A stretch of DNA of 64,000 nt from an uncultured Bacilli bacterium (GTDB taxonomy: Bacteria > Bacillota_I > Bacilli_A > RF39 > UBA660), in contig CAKPTA010000001.1 of NCBI GenBank assembly GCA_934190785.1, positions 13,514-77,513 on the forward strand, read 5' to 3'. The position numbers were made by a program, and so were the translations under genes. Positions within the stretch are counted from its first letter, which is position 1. Each line of letters starts with the position of its first letter. Positions 5,939-34,229 of this stretch are shown piece by piece. Below the pieces are notes generated by a model, which was not told the origin of the DNA, ran no database searches, and was given only the letters and a program-made list of their open reading frames with translations.

Positions 5939-6382
5939 GTGGTAATAATGAATAATGATAAAATAACAAAAAGATATATAATACCAAATTTTTTAACTAT
6001 TTTAATACTAATAATTAATTTCATATTATGCTATTTTAATTTAGATAATTTAATTAATTCTAATGATACAGTTGGTAATTTGATTGGTGTATTTGGTTCT
6101 ATAATATTACCTTATATAGTTATAGATATTATAATTCAATTTATAGTATTAATTTTAAATTTGATTAATAAACAAAGTAAACAATCGTTAAATATATTTT
6201 TATTAATTATTGAAGTCATATATTTTATTTTTACTAATTTTGCAGTTATACCTTTTATGCTTTTAAATTTATTGTTTTTCAATAAACTATTAGCATATTC
6301 AGTTTTTCTGATTTTTGAATTTTTAAATGTATATATAATTGTGTTAATGATAAAAAATATAATTAAATGTAAAGAAGAATGA
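5939..6382 (+). CDS. hypothetical small integral membrane protein
   Basis: Four predicted hydrophobic helices, no known motifs. Confidence 0.4.
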   Translation: MVIMNNDKITKRYIIPNFLTILILIINFILCYFNLDNLINSNDTVGNLIGVFGSIILPYIVIDIIIQFIVLILNLINKQSKQSLNIFLLIIEVIYFIFTNFAVIPFMLLNLLFFNKLLAYSVFLIFEFLNVYIIVLMIKNIIKCKEE

Positions 6383-6479
6383 ATTATATTATATTATATT
6401 ATAATTAATGAAATATTAAAAAATGAATGGTCAAAAGAAAAATTTAGTATTAGTAATCAAAAAAATAGTCTAATAGTAT

Positions 6480-6870
6480 AACTAATCAAAGGCAAATTAC
6501 AGATGCTTATTTAGAAGATTACAAAGAATATAAATTAGTTGATTATTATATAGATGATGAAGATTCTAGTACTAATTTTGATAGACCAAAGTTTCAAAGA
6601 ATGTTAGAAGAAATAAAAAATAAGAAAATAGATGTAATACTTATAAAAGATTTGTCAAGATTTGGTAGAAATTATATTGAAACTGCTAATTTTGCAGAAA
6701 TAGTATTTCTTACTATGGGAGTATCTGTAAAAATTATGAAATAGAGTCATTAGATTACTATGATAATGATTATGTTTTGTTAAAAACTTTATTTAATGAT
6801 ATGTATGTAAAAGATATATCAAAAAAAGTAAGAAGTTCTTTAATTGTTAAGAAAGATAATGGAAGTAATA
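6480..6870 (+). pseudogene. serine recombinase fragment (copy A: resolvase-domain pieces, no start, internal stops)
   Basis: Translations 'NFDRPKFQRMLEEIKNKKIDVILIKDLSRFGRNYIE' and 'LFNDMYVKDISKKVRSSL' match the large serine recombinase N-terminal region. The catalytic-Ser N-terminus is absent and the two pieces lie in different frames. Confidence 0.6.
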
Positions 6871-26137: not shown

Positions 26138-26583
26138 TGCGATTAAATGAAAAAGGTTTTGAACTTTCAACTATGTTAGCATTTTGTCTTTGCTTTTGTT
26201 TATGTCTTATTTTTGTAGCAGTTTCATATAATCAAAAACTTTCTACTAATACACCTATTAAGAATAATAATACAGTAAGCAAAAGTGATAATGATACTAA
26301 TAAAATTCAAACAACAACTAAGGATTCTTCTAAATATCAAGAGATTGAACAGGCTTTAGCTAAAGAAATAGAAGATAGTATCGGAGATAAGGTTTCATAT
26401 GGGAAGCTTATTATTTCTAATGATAATATTAAAAGTAATTTTGAATCTTTATGGAAAGAGTATACTGAACTTAAAGATTGTACAGGATATGCTATTATAG
26501 ACGCTGATAAAAAAGAAACAAAGGTTTATTTAAACTGCTATAAAAATTATCAAACACAAAATTATAACATTGATTTTGAATAA
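26137..26583 (+). CDS. hypothetical exported/membrane-anchored protein
   Basis: N-terminus 'MRLNEKGFELSTMLAFCLCFCLCLIFVAV' is pilin-like plus TM; the start codon overlaps the preceding stop. Confidence 0.45.
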   Translation: MRLNEKGFELSTMLAFCLCFCLCLIFVAVSYNQKLSTNTPIKNNNTVSKSDNDTNKIQTTTKDSSKYQEIEQALAKEIEDSIGDKVSYGKLIISNDNIKSNFESLWKEYTELKDCTGYAIIDADKKETKVYLNCYKNYQTQNYNIDFE

Positions 26584-26598
26584 AAAGTCATCATATTA

Positions 26599-26627
26599 TT
26601 GACAACAAGCTGGATATAATGTAAAAT
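26599..26627 (+). promoter_or_regulatory. promoter for tRNA-Ser
   Basis: TTGACA, 17 nt, TAAAAT, ending 13 nt before the tRNA 5' end. Confidence 0.5.
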
Positions 26628-26640
26628 TATATTCGTAGCT

Positions 26641-26731
26641 GGAGACATACTCAAGAGGCTGAAGAGGCGCCCCTGCTAAGGGTGTAGGTCGGGCAACTGG
26701 CGCGAGGGTTCAAATCCCTCTGTCTCCGCCA
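26641..26731 (+). tRNA. tRNA-Ser (anticodon GCU), CCA encoded
   Basis: Acceptor stem GGAGACA/TGTCTCC. Anticodon stem CGCCC/GGGTG with loop CUGCUAA. Long variable arm, T-loop GGTTCAAATCC, 3' GCCA. Confidence 0.85.
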
Positions 26732-26741
26732 TTTATGATAT

Positions 26742-26777
26742 AAACGAATTTTATAATTCGTTTTTATTTTTTTATTT
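26742..26777 (+). terminator. rho-independent terminator after tRNA-Ser
   Basis: AAACGAATTttatAATTCGTTT hairpin plus T-rich tract. Confidence 0.65.
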
Positions 26778-26839
26778 TGATAAATTATAGTTTAGGCAAG
26801 AAAATAGATGCTCCATATATTAAAGTAAGGAGGTATTTT

Positions 26840-27433
26840 ATGTCATTAAAAAAATGTGCTGAAATAGAAAAAAATGCTAAAATTAAAAATAAATTATTAA
26901 ATATTGGCATTGGATATCCAATAATAGGTCCAACAGGACCAAGAGGTGAAGCAGGTCAAAGAGGAGAAAAGGGTGAAAAAGGTGATAAAGGAGATCCTGG
27001 AGTAGATGCTGTTGCTTCAAATGATGGAATTTTTTTCACAAGTTTTGTAGAAACTGATACATCAGAAAAGATGACTTTTCAAGACTCTTGGTTTGTACCA
27101 AATAAAACAGAATTTTTTCAAATATTAAATGATAGTGATGTACAGGTAAAAGCTGGTATTTATGAACTAGCCTTTTCAGGGTTAATAGAACAAGCAGATG
27201 ATACTCATGGAGCTCAAGTTTATCTTCAAACTAGCGAAGGCGAAGCGGTTCACGATTTAACATTTAAGTTGGAAGGTGGAAGTGGAAAACAATTGTCATT
27301 TTCACAGACAATATTGTTTAGATTTGAAAAAGATACAATATTGCAAGTGATGGCAAATATATTAGGTGATGAAGATACATCTGATATTATTATATCTGAT
27401 GTTAATTTACTCATGAAAAAAATTCATGAATAA
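26840..27433 (+). CDS. collagen-like (G-x-y)n repeat protein with C-terminal BclA/C1q-like globular domain
   Basis: 'GPTGPRGEAGQRGEKGEKGDKGDPG' triple-helix repeats followed by a roughly 140-aa beta-rich domain; AAGGAGG RBS before ATG 26840. Confidence 0.7.
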   Translation: MSLKKCAEIEKNAKIKNKLLNIGIGYPIIGPTGPRGEAGQRGEKGEKGDKGDPGVDAVASNDGIFFTSFVETDTSEKMTFQDSWFVPNKTEFFQILNDSDVQVKAGIYELAFSGLIEQADDTHGAQVYLQTSEGEAVHDLTFKLEGGSGKQLSFSQTILFRFEKDTILQVMANILGDEDTSDIIISDVNLLMKKIHE

Positions 27434-27465
27434 ATTTATACGAATAGTCCAGGTACACCCACACG

Positions 27466-27501
27466 CCACTTGACAAGTGGGGGTGGGGTGTATGCTAAAA
27501 T
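27466..27501 (+). promoter_or_regulatory. putative promoter/operator upstream of the pilin-like gene
   Basis: Perfect inverted repeat CCACTTG-a-CAAGTGG (27466..27480) overlaps a TTGACA hexamer (27470..27475). TAAAAT at 27496, but spacing to −35 is non-canonical. The surrounding segment is unusually GC-rich. Confidence 0.35.
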
Positions 27502-27529
27502 ACACTTTAGAATAGAGGTGTATTTTTTT

Positions 27530-29122
27530 ATGAAAAAGAAAGGTTTTACGCTTATAGAATTACTTGCCGTAATAGTTGTTCTAGCAGTAGTCACATTAAT
27601 ATCAATGCCACTAGTATTAAATACAATAGATAAGGCAAAGAAAGGTGCAGCTATAGAATCAGCTAATGGTGTTATATCAGCAGCTGAGAATAAATACATG
27701 AGTAGTATGATAACAGGAGATAAAGATACAAGATTTGATTTTCCAAGTGATACCAAGTTATCAATCAAAGGAACAAGACCAACAAGTGGAACAGTTGTCG
27801 TTGATAAGAAAGGTAATATAAGTGCTACTTTAGAAATAAATGGATACTGCATAGAAAAGACGTTTCTTGAAACATCACCAAAAGTAATAGAAAAAAGTCC
27901 ATGTACAATTAGTGATAGTGAGCTTTTTGAAGCAGAAAAATATAAAGATTCTGTTTTAAATGGAGCAGACCCTGTTATAAATAGTGACTTAGTAGCAGTA
28001 ACAATAGAAAATGATGGAACAGTAAAAAAAGCCGATATCAAAAAAGAATGGTATAACTATAAAAATAAAGTATGGGCCAATGCGATTATTCTAAAAGATA
28101 AAACAATAAACTATGAAGATAATGAAGTAATACCAGAAAGTAATATTGAATCATATTTTGTATGGATACCAAGATATAAATATAGAATATTTAATGAAGG
28201 AAATTATACAAACTATATAGAAGGAAAACCAGAAAGTTCAAGTAAACCAGATACAATAGAAATAGTATTTGAAGATAAAAACACAAGTGTATCAAAAGGA
28301 AGTAAAGTAGGAGAATACTTAACACATCCAGCCTTTACAAGTTTTGAAAGTAATGGATTTTGGATGGGAAAATTTGAAGTAACAGGAAGTACAAGTAATA
28401 TAACAGTAAAACCAAATAATACATCACTTCGAAATATAAATGTAAAATCAATGTTTGAGCTAGCTTACAATTATAATAGAAATTTAGATAGTCATATGTT
28501 AAAAAATACTGAATGGGGAGCAGCTACATACTTATCATATTCAGTATATGGAATAAATGATGAAGTAAATATAAATAATAATAGTAACTTTGTAACAGGA
28601 TATAGTGCGGTTTCTGGAACAGATCAAAGTAGTTATCCTGGAATATATGGAACCGCATCAAATATAACACTTGCATATAATACAGAAACAGGATATAGGG
28701 CAAGTACAACAGGAAATATAAGTGGAGTATACGATATGAGTGGAGGAGCATGGGAATACATGGCTTCATATGTAAAAGATACATATAAAGATAGTGGTTT
28801 TGATGCATCCTCAATATCTAAGTATAATTCAAAATACTTTGATGTTTATCCAAGTCCAAGTGGATGGACAAGCTATAACAAACGAATTTTAGGAGATGCA
28901 ACGGGAGAGATGGGACCATTCTATTATTACAAAGAAAAAGATGAAACTAGTAGAATACATAACTCTTGGTTTGGTGTCTCCTCTGACTTCGTTGTCGCTT
29001 CTTACCCTTGGTTCGGTCGCGGAGGCCGTTACACTGGCGGCGTTCTTGCAGGTCAGTCGGGCTTCGGTAGGTTCACTGGTGGTGCGCTCGGTTGGGGTGG
29101 CTTCCGCCTCGCTCTTACATAA
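27530..29122 (+). CDS. type IV pilin-like protein with large C-terminal domain (prepilin-type N-terminal cleavage/methylation signal)
   Basis: 'MKKKGFTLIELLAVIVVLAVVTL' class-III signal peptide. 530-aa body rich in N/T/S/Y. Gly/Arg-rich C-terminal tail. AGAGGTG RBS. Confidence 0.7.
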   Translation: MKKKGFTLIELLAVIVVLAVVTLISMPLVLNTIDKAKKGAAIESANGVISAAENKYMSSMITGDKDTRFDFPSDTKLSIKGTRPTSGTVVVDKKGNISATLEINGYCIEKTFLETSPKVIEKSPCTISDSELFEAEKYKDSVLNGADPVINSDLVAVTIENDGTVKKADIKKEWYNYKNKVWANAIILKDKTINYEDNEVIPESNIESYFVWIPRYKYRIFNEGNYTNYIEGKPESSSKPDTIEIVFEDKNTSVSKGSKVGEYLTHPAFTSFESNGFWMGKFEVTGSTSNITVKPNNTSLRNINVKSMFELAYNYNRNLDSHMLKNTEWGAATYLSYSVYGINDEVNINNNSNFVTGYSAVSGTDQSSYPGIYGTASNITLAYNTETGYRASTTGNISGVYDMSGGAWEYMASYVKDTYKDSGFDASSISKYNSKYFDVYPSPSGWTSYNKRILGDATGEMGPFYYYKEKDETSRIHNSWFGVSSDFVVASYPWFGRGGRYTGGVLAGQSGFGRFTGGALGWGGFRLALT

Positions 29123-29147
29123 AAACTGTATTATACAGTTTTTTTGA
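29123..29147 (+). terminator. rho-independent terminator
   Basis: AACTGTATtATACAGTT hairpin plus T6. Confidence 0.65.
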
Positions 29148-29187
29148 TATTAAATAATTTAAATCATATTCTATTATTGGTGATAAT

Positions 29188-29829
29188 ATGTTTATAGCAC
29201 ATAGGGGTCTTAACAATCATAAATATGGAGAAAATTGTATGGATGGTATTTTAGATAGTTTAGATAAAAATTATATATCTGGGATAGAATGTGATTTAAG
29301 ATTAACTAAAGATAATAAAATTGTCTTACTTCACAATATGCTTATAGATAGAGTTAGTAATGCAAGTGGTTTTGTTTATAAAAAAAATTTGGATGATTTA
29401 TTATCATACCAATTTCATTCTGGAAAAATAACCGTTTTATCTGATTTGTTATCTAAAATTAATAATAATAAGATATTACTCCTTGAAATAAAGGAAGAGA
29501 GAAATGTTATCAGTGAATGGGTTGTTGCAATCGAAAGTATTCTTAAAAACTATTCTGATCTTAATATTTATCTTTGTAGTTTTAATTATAATTTATTAAA
29601 AAACTTAAAAAATAGGTTTAAAAATATTAAGATGGGTTTAATTGTTGGATATAGTATGAATAAGAGTAAAGATTTATCTTTATTTGATTTTGTTATGTAT
29701 CATTATAATAGTTTTAAATATACACATAAAATGAGTATGGTATTTACTATTAATGATTTTTCTTTGAAAGAAAAATATAAAAAAAGAGTAGATTATATTA
29801 TTACGGATGTTGCTTATAAATTAGTATAA
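29188..29829 (+). CDS. glycerophosphodiester phosphodiesterase family protein
   Basis: 'FIAHRGL' N-terminal GDPD motif and 'ECDLRLTKD'. Confidence 0.65.
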   Translation: MFIAHRGLNNHKYGENCMDGILDSLDKNYISGIECDLRLTKDNKIVLLHNMLIDRVSNASGFVYKKNLDDLLSYQFHSGKITVLSDLLSKINNNKILLLEIKEERNVISEWVVAIESILKNYSDLNIYLCSFNYNLLKNLKNRFKNIKMGLIVGYSMNKSKDLSLFDFVMYHYNSFKYTHKMSMVFTINDFSLKEKYKKRVDYIITDVAYKLV

Positions 29830-30323
29830 CCACCTGTGATGTTATTAGCAATTTCTGATATAATCATACAATTAGGGTTAAGTGTTTTTATATCTTTTAC
29901 AACTTTAGATTTTTGCTTTCTAGCAGTAAATATTAAAAGTACGTATTTTTCTTTGTCCTTTCCATATCCAGGAACAGTTGTAATAGCGTAACCTTTACTT
30001 CTTAATTCATCTATGGTGTTAATATTTTCTTTGTCAATTATACAAGTAAGAAGATTGTTACCAAGTGCGATTTTATTTTCTACATAACTTCCTACATAAG
30101 AGCCAACAAAAGACCCAAGACAAAAAAAGATAACTTTTAAAATGTCGCTTTTAATATCAATGATAACAATTCCTGCTGTAATAACCCATATTATTGAAGT
30201 TATAAAGTTCAAAATAGCACCAAGCATTTTCTTATTATTAGAGACGACAATTAAACGTAGTGTAGCTAGAGCATTTTCAATAACTTTTGACATAAATATG
30301 GCAAAATATATAATTATTTTCAT
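29814..30323 (-). CDS. UPF0316/DUF2179 family membrane protein
   Basis: N-terminal TM helices 'ATLRLIVVSNNKKMLGAILNFITSIIWVITAGIV…YVENKIALG' and C-terminal DUF2179-like 'AITTVPGYGKDKEKYVLLIF'. Confidence 0.55.
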   Translation of the reverse strand: MKIIIYFAIFMSKVIENALATLRLIVVSNNKKMLGAILNFITSIIWVITAGIVIIDIKSDILKVIFFCLGSFVGSYVGSYVENKIALGNNLLTCIIDKENINTIDELRSKGYAITTVPGYGKDKEKYVLLIFTARKQKSKVVKDIKTLNPNCMIISEIANNITGGYTNL

Positions 30324-30419
30324 ACTTCACCTCATTTTTATTTTAGGAAGTATTTTGTATTTTATACATATTCAAAAATTGGCGAAAATGTGCTACAATA
30401 TTTGGAAGTTGGTGATATT

Positions 30420-31052
30420 ATGAAAGTTAATTATAGTTTAGTGATGGAAAGTATTATAAAAGAAAATCAAGAAAAAGGTATAAAGCCAAGTCTTCTATTA
30501 CATGTGTGTTGTGCTCCTTGTAGTAGTGCTGCTTTAGAAAAATTAATTAAATATTTTAATATTACAATTTATTATTACAATCCTAATATCTCACCAATTA
30601 CAGAATATAAAAAAAGAGTATCTGAATTAAAAAAGTTTTTGCATGATACTAATATGGAAAATGAAGTTAATGTAATTGAAGGGGAATATGATAATAGTTC
30701 ATTTGATGAGATAGCACGTGGATTTGAGCATGAAAAAGAGGGTGGAACGCGTTGCTTTAAATGTTACTATTTAAGACTAAATAGTACAGCTAAATTGGCT
30801 TTAGAAAAAAAGTTTGATTATTTTACAACAACACTATCAATAAGTCCGTATAAATCAGCTTCTAAATTAAATGAAATAGGAAGTGTTTTAGAAAAAAAGT
30901 ATGGTGTAAAATATTTATATTCTGATTTTAAAAAGAAAGATGGTTATAAAAGATCAATCGAACTTTCTTATAAATATAATTTATACAGACAAAATTATTG
31001 TGGATGTATTTATTCATATGAGGTGATGAAAAATGAAAAAGCAGACATATAA
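30420..31052 (+). CDS. queH: epoxyqueuosine reductase QueH (DUF208)
   Basis: 'LLLHVCCAPCS' signature and downstream conserved Cys ('GGTRCFKCY', 'CGC'). A TGCTACAAT −10-like element lies upstream of ATG 30420. Confidence 0.7.
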   Translation: MKVNYSLVMESIIKENQEKGIKPSLLLHVCCAPCSSAALEKLIKYFNITIYYYNPNISPITEYKKRVSELKKFLHDTNMENEVNVIEGEYDNSSFDEIARGFEHEKEGGTRCFKCYYLRLNSTAKLALEKKFDYFTTTLSISPYKSASKLNEIGSVLEKKYGVKYLYSDFKKKDGYKRSIELSYKYNLYRQNYCGCIYSYEVMKNEKADI

Positions 31053-31743
31053 AGAACTTAGAGCTTTAATTTGTGCTTTAGTAGTAGCAAGTTTAGCAAG
31101 TGGATGTAAAACTAAAACAAACGATATTAATAGTGCAAGTAATATAGAAAAATCTAGTGAAACTGTAACTAATGATAATAGTGTTAGTACCGAAGAAAAT
31201 AGCGTTAGTAGTGATAATAAAGATAATTATAGTGTAGAAGAAAGTAAAGGAAGTGTAAGTACTAAAGAAGCAACAACTGTTTATGAAGAAAATAGTGATA
31301 AACAAGTTTTAGAATATATGGAAAATTTATATAATTCTATTTCTGAATTAGAAGATAGTGCTTCTATTAAAGCTAGGAATGGTTTTATAAGTACAATTGA
31401 TTTTTTATTCTATGATGGAGAAATTTGTGGAGTAACATTTGATAGTCTTAGTGCTAGTGCAAAAGAAAAGGTAATTATTATATCTACTAAGATTGTTGAA
31501 AAAATAGATAGTAAATTTCCAAATTTAAGATCGTCTGTTGGAGAAAAATATAGCGAAGCTTCAGCGTATTTAGTAAATAAAAAAGATGAACTTGTGGATG
31601 TTGTAAAAGGAAAACTTGGTAGTGATAATTGTGATAAAATATCTGATTACTATAAAAGTGCTAAAGATAAGGCTTCTAATACATATGACAAGGCAAAGGA
31701 AAAAGTAAAAAATTGGTATGAAAATTACCGTGATAATGAATAA
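31033..31743 (+). CDS. hypothetical lipoprotein
   Basis: Signal peptide with lipobox 'LASGC'; Ser/Asp/Glu-rich mature part; GAGGTGA RBS. Confidence 0.6.
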   Translation: MKKQTYKELRALICALVVASLASGCKTKTNDINSASNIEKSSETVTNDNSVSTEENSVSSDNKDNYSVEESKGSVSTKEATTVYEENSDKQVLEYMENLYNSISELEDSASIKARNGFISTIDFLFYDGEICGVTFDSLSASAKEKVIIISTKIVEKIDSKFPNLRSSVGEKYSEASAYLVNKKDELVDVVKGKLGSDNCDKISDYYKSAKDKASNTYDKAKEKVKNWYENYRDNE

Positions 31744-31766
31744 AAACGTCTTTAAGACGTTTTTAT
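31743..31766. terminator. bidirectional terminator shared by the lipoprotein gene and lexA
   Basis: AAACGTCTTtaAAGACGTTT hairpin flanked by A and T runs. Confidence 0.6.
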
Positions 31767-32440
31767 ATTTTTCTATATAAACCAATTGCTTTACCAAGAA
31801 TAGTAACATTATTTAAAATAATTGGAGCCATCGTATCATTTTCAGGTTGTAGTCGGAAATATCCATCCTCTTTATAATATGTTTTTAAGGTAACTTCATT
31901 TTCATCTGTCATAGCAACAACAATCTCACCATTAGACGCTGTATTTCTTCTTTCAACAATAACAATGTCACCACTTAAAATTCCTGCATTTATCATACTT
32001 TCACCATGAACATTTAAAGTGAAAACATCTTTATTTTTAGGAATTAAATAAGATGGTAGTGCAAAGTATTCATCTGGATGTTCAATTGCTTCAATTGGAC
32101 TTCCTGCGGTAATATTACCAAGTAGGGGGACTTCTACAACCATATCATTATCATTTATTGCAAATTCATTTTTAACTAATAATTCAATAGCTCTATTTTT
32201 AGCACCATCTCTTTTGATAAAACCTTTTTTTTCTAGATTAGTTAAATGTACATGAATAGTTGCTGGTGAAGATATATCTAATGCTTTTCCAATTTCACGT
32301 ACAGTAGGTGGAAATCCATGAGATACAATATATGATTTTATATAATTTAGAATTTCAGATTGTCTATTTGTTAAATTTTCGATATGAATCACTCCTTTAA
32401 ACTCTATGTCAATAATAACACTATTTTTTTTAAAAGTCAA
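31763..32440 (-). CDS. lexA: LexA repressor (5' end uncertain)
   Basis: N-terminal wHTH 'PPTVREIGKALDISSPATIHVHLTNLEKKGFIKRD' and C-terminal S24 peptidase 'GESMINAGI…GDIVIVER'. The maximal ORF starts at TTG 32440 inside a Cheo box, so the true start is probably downstream near the AAAGGAG at about 32400. Confidence 0.85.
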   Translation of the reverse strand: MTFKKNSVIIDIEFKGVIHIENLTNRQSEILNYIKSYIVSHGFPPTVREIGKALDISSPATIHVHLTNLEKKGFIKRDGAKNRAIELLVKNEFAINDNDMVVEVPLLGNITAGSPIEAIEHPDEYFALPSYLIPKNKDVFTLNVHGESMINAGILSGDIVIVERRNTASNGEIVVAMTDENEVTLKTYYKEDGYFRLQPENDTMAPIILNNVTILGKAIGLYRKI

Positions 32441-32661: not shown

Positions 32662-32751
32662 GACAAATAATTTATTTGTTTTTTTTATTTTGTTTATAAT
32701 AAACGACATGATTATTCAAAGTAAATATATATAATTACTCTGGGTGATAAA

Positions 32752-33543
32752 ATGAAACTTTATTTAGATTTGATCTTTTTTCTGAATTTTAGTTTTGATT
32801 TTATGCTTTTACTTACTGTATCTGTAGTCCTTAAAAGAAATGTTTCTTTTAAAAGAATTTTTATGGGAGCTTTAATTGGTGCTATGAGTATTTTTTGTTT
32901 GTTTATTAAAATATCTTCTTTTACTCTTTTTTTATTTAAATTATTTATTAGTGTGATTATGATTATAGTTACATTTAAATTTAAAGATTTTTCATATTTT
33001 ATCAAAAATATGGGATATTTTTATATGGTAAGTATTATTTTAGGTGGTTTCTTATATTATCTAAATATTGAATTTTCTTATAAACAAGAAGGACTTGTTT
33101 TTTATCACCACGGCTTGTCAATTAATTTTGTTATCTTAGTTATAATTTCGCCTATTATTTTATATAATTATATAAGACAGGCACGTTTTTTTCGTAAAAG
33201 TGTTAGTTATTATCACAATGTTAGTTTGATGTATAAGGGCATTAAATATAATTTGTTTGGATATTTGGATACTGGTAATACTCTAAAGAGTCCATATTCT
33301 AACAAATGTGTTTCTATTATTAATAAAAATATTTTAACAGATATTAGTGACTCTGACGTTATATACATTAAGGCATCAACAGTATCGTCAAGTAAACTTA
33401 TGAAATGTATAAAAGTTAGTTATTTAAAAATTGATAATAAATATATTTATGATGCTCTTGTTGGAATTAGTTATGAAGATATTTTATTTGATGGGGTAGA
33501 TATTTTATTAAATAGGGATATATTGGAGGATGAAAATTTATGA
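32752..33543 (+). CDS. spoIIGA: sigma-E processing peptidase SpoIIGA
   Basis: Multi-TM N-terminus 'MKLYLDLIFFLNFSFDFMLL' and aspartic protease motif 'GYLDTGNTL'; immediately followed by sigE. Confidence 0.85.
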   Translation: MKLYLDLIFFLNFSFDFMLLLTVSVVLKRNVSFKRIFMGALIGAMSIFCLFIKISSFTLFLFKLFISVIMIIVTFKFKDFSYFIKNMGYFYMVSIILGGFLYYLNIEFSYKQEGLVFYHHGLSINFVILVIISPIILYNYIRQARFFRKSVSYYHNVSLMYKGIKYNLFGYLDTGNTLKSPYSNKCVSIINKNILTDISDSDVIYIKASTVSSSKLMKCIKVSYLKIDNKYIYDALVGISYEDILFDGVDILLNRDILEDENL

Positions 33544-34229
33544 TTAGAAAATTAATTAGCTTTTTTTATAGAATATTTAGAAGTAATAGTATTTTCTTTG
33601 TTGGTAGTGCAGATAAACTTCCAGAACCATTATCAAAAGAAGATGAGATTTTTTATGTTGAAAAAGCAACTTTGGGTGATACAGAAGCCAAAAGTAAATT
33701 AATAGAACATAATTTAAGATTGGTTGTCTTTTTAGCTAAAAAATATGAAAATACAGGTGTTGATTTAGAGGATTTAGTAAGTATTGGTACAATTGGACTT
33801 ATTAAGGGAATAAATACATATAAATTAGATAAGAATATTAAGCTTGCAACATATGCATCTCGTTGTATTGATAATGAAATATTAATGTTTTTAAGAAAAA
33901 ATAAAAAAAGAAAAAGTGAAATTAGTTTTGAAGATAGTCTTAGTTATGACAGTGAAGGTAATGAACTTCATTTAGAAGATATTTTAGGAACGGATGAAGA
34001 TATTGTTACATCTGGCCTAGAGAGAGAAACAGAAAAGAACTTATTATTAGGTGAAATAAATAGACTAAAGGGTAGAGATAGAGAAATTATGATTATGAGA
34101 TATGGACTTTTTGGAGCTGATGCAATGACACAAAAAGATGTTGCACTTACACTTGGAATTAGTCAGTCATATATATCGAGAATTGAAAAGAAAATAATTT
34201 TACGTTTAAAAAATAATATTCGTGTGTAA
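33540..34229 (+). CDS. sigE: sporulation sigma factor SigE (pro-sigma-E)
   Basis: Pro-sequence, then 'LSKEDEIFYVEKATLGDTEAKSKLIEHNLRLVVFLAKKYENTGVDLEDLVSIGTIGLIKGINTY'; overlaps the spoIIGA stop. Confidence 0.9.
   Translation: MIRKLISFFYRIFRSNSIFFVGSADKLPEPLSKEDEIFYVEKATLGDTEAKSKLIEHNLRLVVFLAKKYENTGVDLEDLVSIGTIGLIKGINTYKLDKNIKLATYASRCIDNEILMFLRKNKKRKSEISFEDSLSYDSEGNELHLEDILGTDEDIVTSGLERETEKNLLLGEINRLKGRDREIMIMRYGLFGADAMTQKDVALTLGISQSYISRIEKKIILRLKNNIRV

Follow-up and report, generated by a model that had tools for sequence, protein, structure and literature searches.

The 64,000 nt stretch of contig CAKPTA010000001.1 from an uncultured Bacilli bacterium that was analysed here (the window) includes a gene for a large pilin-like protein, and the GC-rich, adenine-poor 3' tail of this gene is very probably the variable region (VR) of a diversity-generating retroelement (DGR) target gene. 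A VR was suspected because adenine is depleted at the 3' end of a gene encoding an FGE-sulfatase/C-type-lectin-type domain. Comparison with a template repeat (TR), carried by contig L072 of the human-gut metagenome assembly OUQF01, revealed the adenine-specific pattern of differences described below. Coordinates of the features are listed in Table 1.

The variable region and its template repeat

The VR and the TR differ by 21 mismatches, all at adenines of the TR (21 of 30 adenine sites and 0 of 124 other sites; Fisher p = 3.5e-19). Ten of the substitutions were A>G, eight A>T and three A>C; all fell within positions 28977-29097, and together they altered 13 codons. Homology stops at 29116, three bases ahead of the stop codon, and the adenine-free block at this end, GGCTTCCGCCTCGCTCTT, would provide the 3' homing homology, in the manner of an initiation of mutagenic homing (IMH) site. 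At another locus, the TR-derived tract ends inside a block of the GGCTTCCGCCTCGCTCTT type, after GGCTTCCG. The VR occupies the extreme C-terminus of a C-type-lectin-type fold (Pfam, AlphaFold2 (AF2) and Foldseek), the position expected in a DGR target. In a nucleotide alignment with the paralogues on contigs L043, L044 and L045 (~90% identical), gene bodies were 91-96% identical and tails 55-87% identical; L044, L045 and the window had an invariant tail scaffold in common, and most variable columns were at codon positions 1 and 2.

An earlier note on this DNA had described the end of the gene (28960-29122) as exceeding 50% G+C in a genome below 30%, with altered codon usage, and this description was borne out, as were the coding sequence 27530..29122, the quoted peptide and the pilin-like N-terminus (open reading frame (ORF) and Pfam N_methyl). 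The 163 nt segment (A15 C43 G51 T54) is 57.7% G+C. Windows of 163 nt taken over the whole 64 kb had a mean GC of 0.270 (standard deviation 0.053) and a maximum of 0.583, for those starting at 28950-28953, ~5.8 standard deviations over the mean. The runner-up (26587-26749; 0.448) covers the tRNA-Ser(GCT) gene. The adenine minimum of the 64 kb (0.086 versus a mean of 0.392; 163-nt windows) coincides with the GC-rich tail, which has an AT skew of -0.51; this depletion, as extreme as the GC content, had not been remarked on previously. Codons without A make up 80% of the last 49 codons versus 15% in the gene body, third-position A falls to 6% in the tail from 50% in the body, and third-position GC is 53% and 14%, respectively. 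From body to tail, synonymous choice switches from GGA to GGT/GGC, AGA to CGC/CGT, TTT to TTC and TCA/AGT to TCT/TCG.

The TR (A30 C39 G41 T44) is 52% GC overall and 64.5% GC at its non-A positions, and TRs in relatives are 43-53% GC within loci of 24-29% GC. The GC island arises because constant codons must be written without A to escape mutagenesis. Constant positions are encoded A-free (GGC/GGT, CGC, TCG, GCG, TTC, CTC), so that the TR is already at 52% GC, and randomising its adenines strips most of the remaining A to leave a VR at 60% GC. By the established DGR mechanism, of which the BPP-1 element is the paradigm, a reverse transcriptase (RT) with Avd would reverse-transcribe TR RNA, misincorporating opposite template adenines. 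The cDNA would then replace the homologous VR in trans, the nearest RT being no closer than 27 kb on the upstream side and 35 kb on the downstream side. In this way, about ten A-containing codons in addition to nine AAY codons would re-code the ligand-binding face of the C-type-lectin fold, with 15^9 (~4e10) combinations from the nine AAY codons alone (arithmetic from the TR). Mounted on a type IV pilin-like stalk, the lectin fold would form an adhesin or receptor at the cell surface whose tip can be rewritten.

The retroelement cassette

An ungapped scan of both strands of the window with the tail and its halves found no TR, the best off-target match (66 of 163) being at chance level, and a six-frame search of the window for the RT motifs YxDD and [ILV]GxxxSQ returned only unrelated matches and a resolvase fragment. 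Metagenome contigs were then scanned with a 20-mer from the invariant scaffold (a 19-base core with one N), giving 53 matches of which four were real. These four contigs of the lineage had local alignment scores to the window tail of 111-185; the other 49 were chance matches in GC-rich contigs, scoring at most 23. A scan of viral_contigs with the lineage-specific core pattern gave 0 matches. L092, which is 99.4% identical to window positions 28713-32282 and has an identical VR, and L072 are both from assembly OUQF01. L072 carries the VR of a paralogue followed by an AAC-rich TR (586-753) and then MutS_I-like, Avd and RT ORFs. The cassette, which is elsewhere in the chromosome of this species, thus has the order paralogous target, TR, MutS-like gene (MSL), bAvd and RT.

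An intact RT (P0121; 343 aa, with IGNYTSQ and YMDD motifs and an RVT_1 match) that is 93% identical to the RT in L072 and represents a cluster of 61 sequences was found on L099 and L100, from two other samples, beside the same TR and ~900 nt downstream of its end. Both contigs begin inside the TR, carry ORFs matching bAvd (PF22296) and MutS_I (PF01624) between TR and RT, and continue in a chromosomal context (ABC-F, YlmH, def, FtsW, Fur). The DGR genes have GC contents of 0.25 (MSL), 0.22 (Avd) and 0.23 (RT).

In relatives, which are uncultured gut Bacilli and Saccharibacteria, the 3' tail is repeated 140-1,700 nt away with 88-91% identity, and MutS_I-like and bAvd-like ORFs and an RT of ~345 aa come after the repeats; in L001, bAvd and MutS_I were confirmed by hmmscan (E 5.9e-22 and 3.6e-9). 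Mismatches fell at TR adenines in 14/15, 17/18, 15/15, 22/24, 21/23 and 23/23 cases in L001/2, L003, L026, L036, L037 and L040, respectively. For a comparison in trans within the SIG197 metagenome-assembled genome (MAG), the L003 TR was set against L007 and L010, and 22/38 and 20/31 mismatches were at A. The TRs of the 55%-identical relatives L001, L003 and L026 were rejected as cognate to the window VR, from which they differ by 14-21 non-A mismatches despite an excess at A sites.

A TR-like copy slightly unlike the L072 TR, with AAC at the variable columns, follows the VR in L044 (11760-11920). No MSL, Avd or RT gene comes after it; an 89-aa ORF and a ClpB-like gene are found instead, and this copy could be an orphan TR or part of a rearranged cassette. 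A large serine recombinase gene follows the DGR cassette in L001 (14517-16307), where one contig holds the entire block in two copies (L001, L002), and the cassette in that lineage may be on an integrative element.

Diversification at the locus

The same locus was recovered from other samples via an identical downstream GDPD protein. The VR of the window is also that of L092, L101 and L105. Other VRs are found in L108, L109 (with a similar one in L102) and L110, with the same locus-specific 3' end (CTTACATAA and hairpin) and the same flank. Among the four full-length VR versions, 34 of 154 columns vary, and 24 of these 34 are at TR adenines. Over the ~2 kb downstream, same-locus contigs differ by just 0.1-0.8%. 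The four or more VR versions across samples point to recent or ongoing diversification at this locus, and DGR activity in the window's own strain is unproven.

A second locus is represented by L084 and L043, which are 98% identical over 10.5 kb and share a 3' end (GGCTTCCG joined to TATGGCATTAATTGGATAA). Upstream of this junction, L084 is TR-conforming, with a GC content of 0.58 and 17 of its 18 mismatches at A. The corresponding part of L043 (11434-11596) is a homologous tail in host-like codons (GC 0.43); it is not TR-conforming and is either a decayed VR or a copy to which the template never homed. In this pair, the GC-rich block coincides with the template-derived tract.

Some observations weigh against a VR written by an active element. 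The TR, Avd and RT are absent from the 64-kb window, and the cassette is linked to the window circumstantially, through contigs of one species and one assembly (L092 and L072, both OUQF01), not through a contiguous genome. Some same-locus VRs differ from the L072 TR at non-A sites (1-5 of 124), possibly reflecting TRs that differ between strains, as in L044. The RT gene in L072 (1650-2368) is frameshifted in a poly-A run and ends ~100 aa early, and the VR is identical in the window and the three assemblies that share it.

The tail could therefore be a relic, written earlier by a DGR that is now dead in the window's strain and retained as frozen coding sequence, and this is possible though the less likely interpretation. 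The identical VRs, the truncated RT from the same assembly as the window-like L092, and the evidence from L043 that copies are able to drift towards AT are all consistent with it. However, paralogue bodies differ by 4-9% while none of the non-A positions of the VR has changed, and other samples have different A-site variants at the same locus. The conclusion that the element is dead, drawn from the truncated RT, is also qualified by the intact RT beside the same TR on L099 and L100, with its cluster of relatives. L072 is a contig of 4x coverage and departs from L099 immediately beyond the YMDD motif, thus its RT may reflect either decay of the cassette in that strain or misassembly at low coverage.

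Other explanations for the tail

Gene conversion among dispersed paralogues, without reverse transcription, might produce a mosaic tail, and near-identical paralogues are available at six or more loci. When the window was compared with L092, 17 of 20 mismatches were concentrated in a 150-nt part of the gene body that lies shortly before the VR (28732-28879), the rest being ~99.9% identical, and this cluster suggests either paralogue gene conversion or mixing of paralogue reads in assembly. However, conversion cannot confine differences to template adenines or yield a donor copy with AAC codons, and it is a very unlikely origin for the tail. The recombination hotspot proposed in the earlier note is accurate in so far as the segment is repeatedly overwritten, but the process is adenine-specific mutagenic retrohoming from the TR, not general recombination.

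A low-complexity Gly/Arg-rich tail, with GC content set by amino acid composition alone, is still less likely. Codons for Gly, Arg and Ala are GC-rich, and composition together with local codon usage lifts the expected GC from 0.30 to 0.46; however, 0.61 was observed, the synonymous choice flips and most codons are A-free, and L043 encodes the homologous tail at a GC of only 0.43. An embedded structured RNA or protein-binding DNA element, also put forward previously, is similarly improbable. In AT-rich genomes, a GC-rich segment is often an RNA gene, as with the tRNA-Ser gene upstream, but the tail folds about as well as shuffled sequence (z = -0.6; 58 of 200 shuffles fold as well), is hypervariable between strains, and had no match at E <= 1 in an Rfam scan of 26500-29300, which found tRNA-Ser only.

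The remaining suggestions of the earlier note, horizontal acquisition and an assembly chimera, are hardly credible. The abrupt rise in GC towards the end of the gene, and the mobility of DGRs as a whole (Wu et al. 2018, PMC5758913), would fit recent transfer of the tail from a GC-rich donor. However, the MSL, Avd and RT genes are host-like in GC content and only the TR and VRs are GC-rich, therefore the island is not foreign DNA; the protein domain also runs across the boundary and is conserved in the homologues, the same block is present in every paralogue and the TR, and the 19-base core was matched only by chance outside the lineage. A mis-join at ~28960 might be supposed as many assemblies break inside the gene, some hundreds of nt from its start, or less than ~100 nt from the VR, though the multi-copy body and the VR/TR repeats explain these breaks, which are to be expected in repeated, heterogeneous sequence. 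The reading frame and the protein fold run on without interruption, and the same continuity from body through VR to flank is seen in L092, L101, L105, L108, L109 and L110, making at least seven independent assemblies with these junctions.

The target protein

The N-terminus has the features of a class III signal peptide, namely MKKKG followed at the cleavage site by FTLIELLAVIVVLAVV (MKKKG-FTLIELL, with Glu at +5) and a hydrophobic alpha-1 helix. The N_methyl family (PF07963) was matched with an E value of 1.3e-6 (28.2 bits; cutoff 21.2), and a phmmer search with the N-terminal 131 residues matched MshA, PilE1 and PilA via the alpha-1 helix (E ~1e-4 to 4e-3). The AF2 model (predicted local distance difference test score, pLDDT, 85.6; predicted template-modelling score, pTM, 0.82) has a 55-residue N-terminal helix (8-62), a beta-sheet head (strands 68-120) and further domains.

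A borderline match to FGE-sulfatase (PF03781) covers aa 312-432 (E 4.4e-5; 23.7 bits, cutoff 23.3). In a Foldseek search of the PDB with the whole protein, in which the C-type-lectin part dominated the matches, only TaqVP (5VF4; E 3.2e-6, probability 1.00) and Mtd (1YU0; E 4.8e-4) were found at E <= 1e-3. A catalytic FGE/SUMF1 enzyme was rejected, as only profile positions 101-205 of 255 were matched and the structural neighbours are non-enzymatic DGR variable proteins; EgtB and OvoA enzymes appeared in the fold search only at E > 0.2. As modelled, the protein shares the FGE fold and not the enzyme function.

An exact look-up of the protein gave no record. Its homologue family comprises >7,900 matches, in gut Bacilli and candidate phyla radiation (CPR) bacteria, and in homologues of 80-92% identity nearly all differences lie within the last ~50 residues, with residues 200-480 almost invariant; the hypervariable C-terminus stands out among those of 89-92% identity. 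The product is predicted to be a surface-displayed lectin, processed by prepilin peptidase, with a binding face re-coded by the DGR. No pilus machinery was found nearby, the ten flanking window ORFs that were scanned being housekeeping genes and a genome-wide search not having been made; other N_methyl proteins are present near paralogues.

The hairpin directly after the stop codon is ordinary-looking and probably a transcription terminator, and it may double as the 3' hairpin that some DGRs need. Hairpins are also found directly after the stop codon in other paralogues. A scan for consensus promoters and terminators missed both this AT-rich hairpin, because its stem has too few G-C pairs, and the promoter-like element upstream of the gene, which has a 20-nt spacer.

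The upstream promoter/5' element

The earlier note had reported a second GC-rich patch upstream of the gene with a perfect 7-bp inverted repeat. Both the patch and the repeat (CCACTTG-a-CAAGTGG; 27466-27480) are present, but they belong to a conserved promoter/5' element found with all paralogues and are not a second anomaly of the same kind. Between 27479 and 27501, the order is G5-T-G4, TGTATGC and TAAAAT (27496-27501), with 20 nt between TTGACA and TAAAAT. The element is predicted to be strongly structured (z = -5.0), and it matches no Rfam family. A 'cin-box'-like sequence, TACGAATA, at 27439-27446 was dropped as it is not kept upstream of the paralogues in L043, L044 and L045.

The G-tract differs among copies: ten others have G10, four (the window copy among them) have G5TG4, and L090 has G7. 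G7 gives a 17-nt spacer, the optimal length, and G10 or G5TG4 gives 20 nt. Distant homologues have G-runs at the equivalent place (G8 in L001, G10 in L008). In Neisseria porA and opc, a poly-G tract between the -35 and -10 sequences causes promoter phase variation through changes in the homopolymer. Here, a G-tract likewise lies between consensus TTGACA and TGnTAAAAT and differs in length between copies. The G-tract is a possible, though unproven, candidate for a slipped-strand homopolymer phase-variation switch. A system of two layers, in which one chromosomal DGR rewrites the tips of at least six copies in trans and the G-tract switches copies on and off, is speculative and on balance doubtful. 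If it were true, copy choice followed by hypermutation of the tip would serve adhesin or antigen variation on a Gram-positive pilus. No description of a system combining a phase-variable promoter with a DGR was found in the searchable literature.

Paralogues and genetic context

Paralogues with 91-96% nucleotide identity, extending to ~85 nt upstream, were found in at least six genomic contexts of the species group. Besides the window, these are next to FtsX/TetR and a collagen-like gene (L117, L119), at a site flanked by YfhO and UvrA (L043, L084), flanked by RecO/DUF212 and the TR (L044, L072), beside RnfC (L045), and in L090. As many near-identical copies are dispersed and the cassette is elsewhere, the window copy is a remote (trans) DGR target.

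Directly upstream of the window copy (26840-27433), a gene encodes a 197-aa protein with a collagen-like Gly-X-Y stretch, GPTGPRGEAGQRGEKGEKGDKGDPG. An identical collagen-like protein is encoded with the pilin-like gene behind FtsX/TetR in L117 and L119, hence the duplicated unit sometimes includes the collagen-like gene.

The flanking genes have housekeeping or sporulation roles (rpoB/C, NrtR-like, tRNA-Ser, GDPD, QueH, LexA, SpoIIGA, sigma-E, RNase III and a PASTA kinase). SpoIIGA and a sigma-E-like sigma factor are encoded at 32725-34229, and SpoIIIAH, YabP and YqfD genes lie near paralogues; these sporulation genes indicate a spore-forming host among the gut Bacilli, with 27% GC and no close species-level representative in the genomes searched. 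A resolvase/serine-recombinase-like fragment (…KFQRMLEEIKNKKIDVILIKDLSRFGRN…) with no intact long frame is found at 6450-6744, adjoining a very AT-rich stretch (6001-6400; GC 0.145-0.15), and may be a mobile-element remnant.

Table 1. Features of the window in and around the pilin-like target gene
Feature	Position	Strand	Remarks
tRNA-Ser(GCT) gene	26641-26731		2.3 kb upstream of the tail; accounts for the other GC-rich patch of the neighbourhood (0.45-0.47)
Conserved promoter/5' element	27445..27529	+	Kept near base-for-base upstream of paralogues at other loci
TTGACA	27470-27475		Part of the element; followed by AGT
G5-T-G4	27479-27488		Part of the element
TG-n-TAAAAT	27493-27501		Part of the element
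Ribosome-binding site GAGG	27515-27518		Part of the element
Very probable DGR target gene, 530 aa	27530..29122	+	Pilin-like N-terminus, middle region, and C-terminal C-type-lectin/FGE-sulfatase-fold domain ending in the VR
Prepilin-type signal and alpha-1 helix (aa 8-62)	27530..27715	+	Pfam N_methyl at aa 2-25; helix in the AF2 model
VR, 154 nt	28963..29116	+	Homologous to the TR at L072:586-739
A-free GC-rich invariant 3' block GGCTTCCGCCTCGCTCTT	29099..29116	+	Identical in the TR and all TR-conforming VRs
AT-rich hairpin and T-run	29121..29145	+	Directly after the stop codon; 10-bp stem in minimum free energy and centroid folds

Relationship to known systems

The element resembles the DGR of Bordetella phage BPP-1 (mtd, TR, avd, brt) in the adenine-specific VR/TR differences, in the VR at the 3' end of a gene for a C-type-lectin fold, in the presence of Avd and an RT with IGxxxSQ and YMDD motifs, and in the significant structural match to Mtd. 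Unlike the phage-borne BPP-1 element, it is chromosomal with a remote target and an extra MutS-like gene, and it diversifies a pilin-like cellular protein rather than a tail-fibre tip. An IMH, IMH* and cruciform are defined for BPP-1, whereas here only the A-free block and the hairpin are known, from sequence.

Remote targets are known for Treponema and other non-phage DGRs, and MSL accessories have been documented (PMC5758913); in Treponema denticola, one TR with seven non-adjacent chromosomal targets was reported (Wu et al. 2018, PMC5758913). The present system is like that of T. denticola (TvpA and remote targets) in having non-adjacent chromosomal targets of one TR. The targets of the Treponema DGR are lipoproteins and its cassette includes HRDC (architecture C), whereas here type IV prepilin signals are found in the targets and the cassette carries MSL with Avd. 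The order target-TR-MSL-Avd-RT, with a small MutS_I-like protein, is that of MSL-containing DGRs (architecture D; PMC5758913) such as that of Legionella pneumophila, which is also chromosomal and diversifies a surface-displayed protein. However, the system described here is found in another phylum, in AT-rich, spore-forming gut Bacilli, its signal is of the pilin type rather than a lipoprotein or Tat signal, and it has many dispersed paralogous targets.

TaqVP of Thermus aquaticus (5VF4), the best structural match, is likewise a cellular DGR variable protein with a C-type-lectin fold, though sequence identity is 15% and global superposition is poor (template-modelling score ~0.3-0.4) because a pilin module and a middle region are added in the window protein. 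For gut Bacteroides, also commensals, a recent preprint (bioRxiv 10.1101/2024.11.15.621889) describes DGR-diversified adhesive proteins associated with type V (FimA/Mfa-like) pili of Bacteroidota, unlike the type IV pilin-like N-terminus in Bacilli seen here, and it mentions neither type IV pili nor Firmicutes. No literature linking DGR VRs with type IV pilin-like proteins was found in the searchable literature beyond PMC11661182, which mentions in passing a 'GspG-type pilin' domain among the rare targets holding a VR. The mechanism is well known, and the multi-copy family of pilin-like targets is undescribed.

The compositional anomaly at the end of the gene is explained completely by this known mechanism, and an adenine-poor and relatively GC-rich 3' island in an AT-rich genome is a usable signature of remote DGR targets, which cassette-centred DGR finders miss when the RT and TR are far off or on another contig. 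The homologues make up a large family whose lectin domains, diversified by DGRs, are carried on a type IV pilin-like module. This suggests that adhesion or recognition is programmable in uncultured Firmicutes of the human gut, in parallel with the DGR-diversified type V pilus adhesins of Bacteroides.

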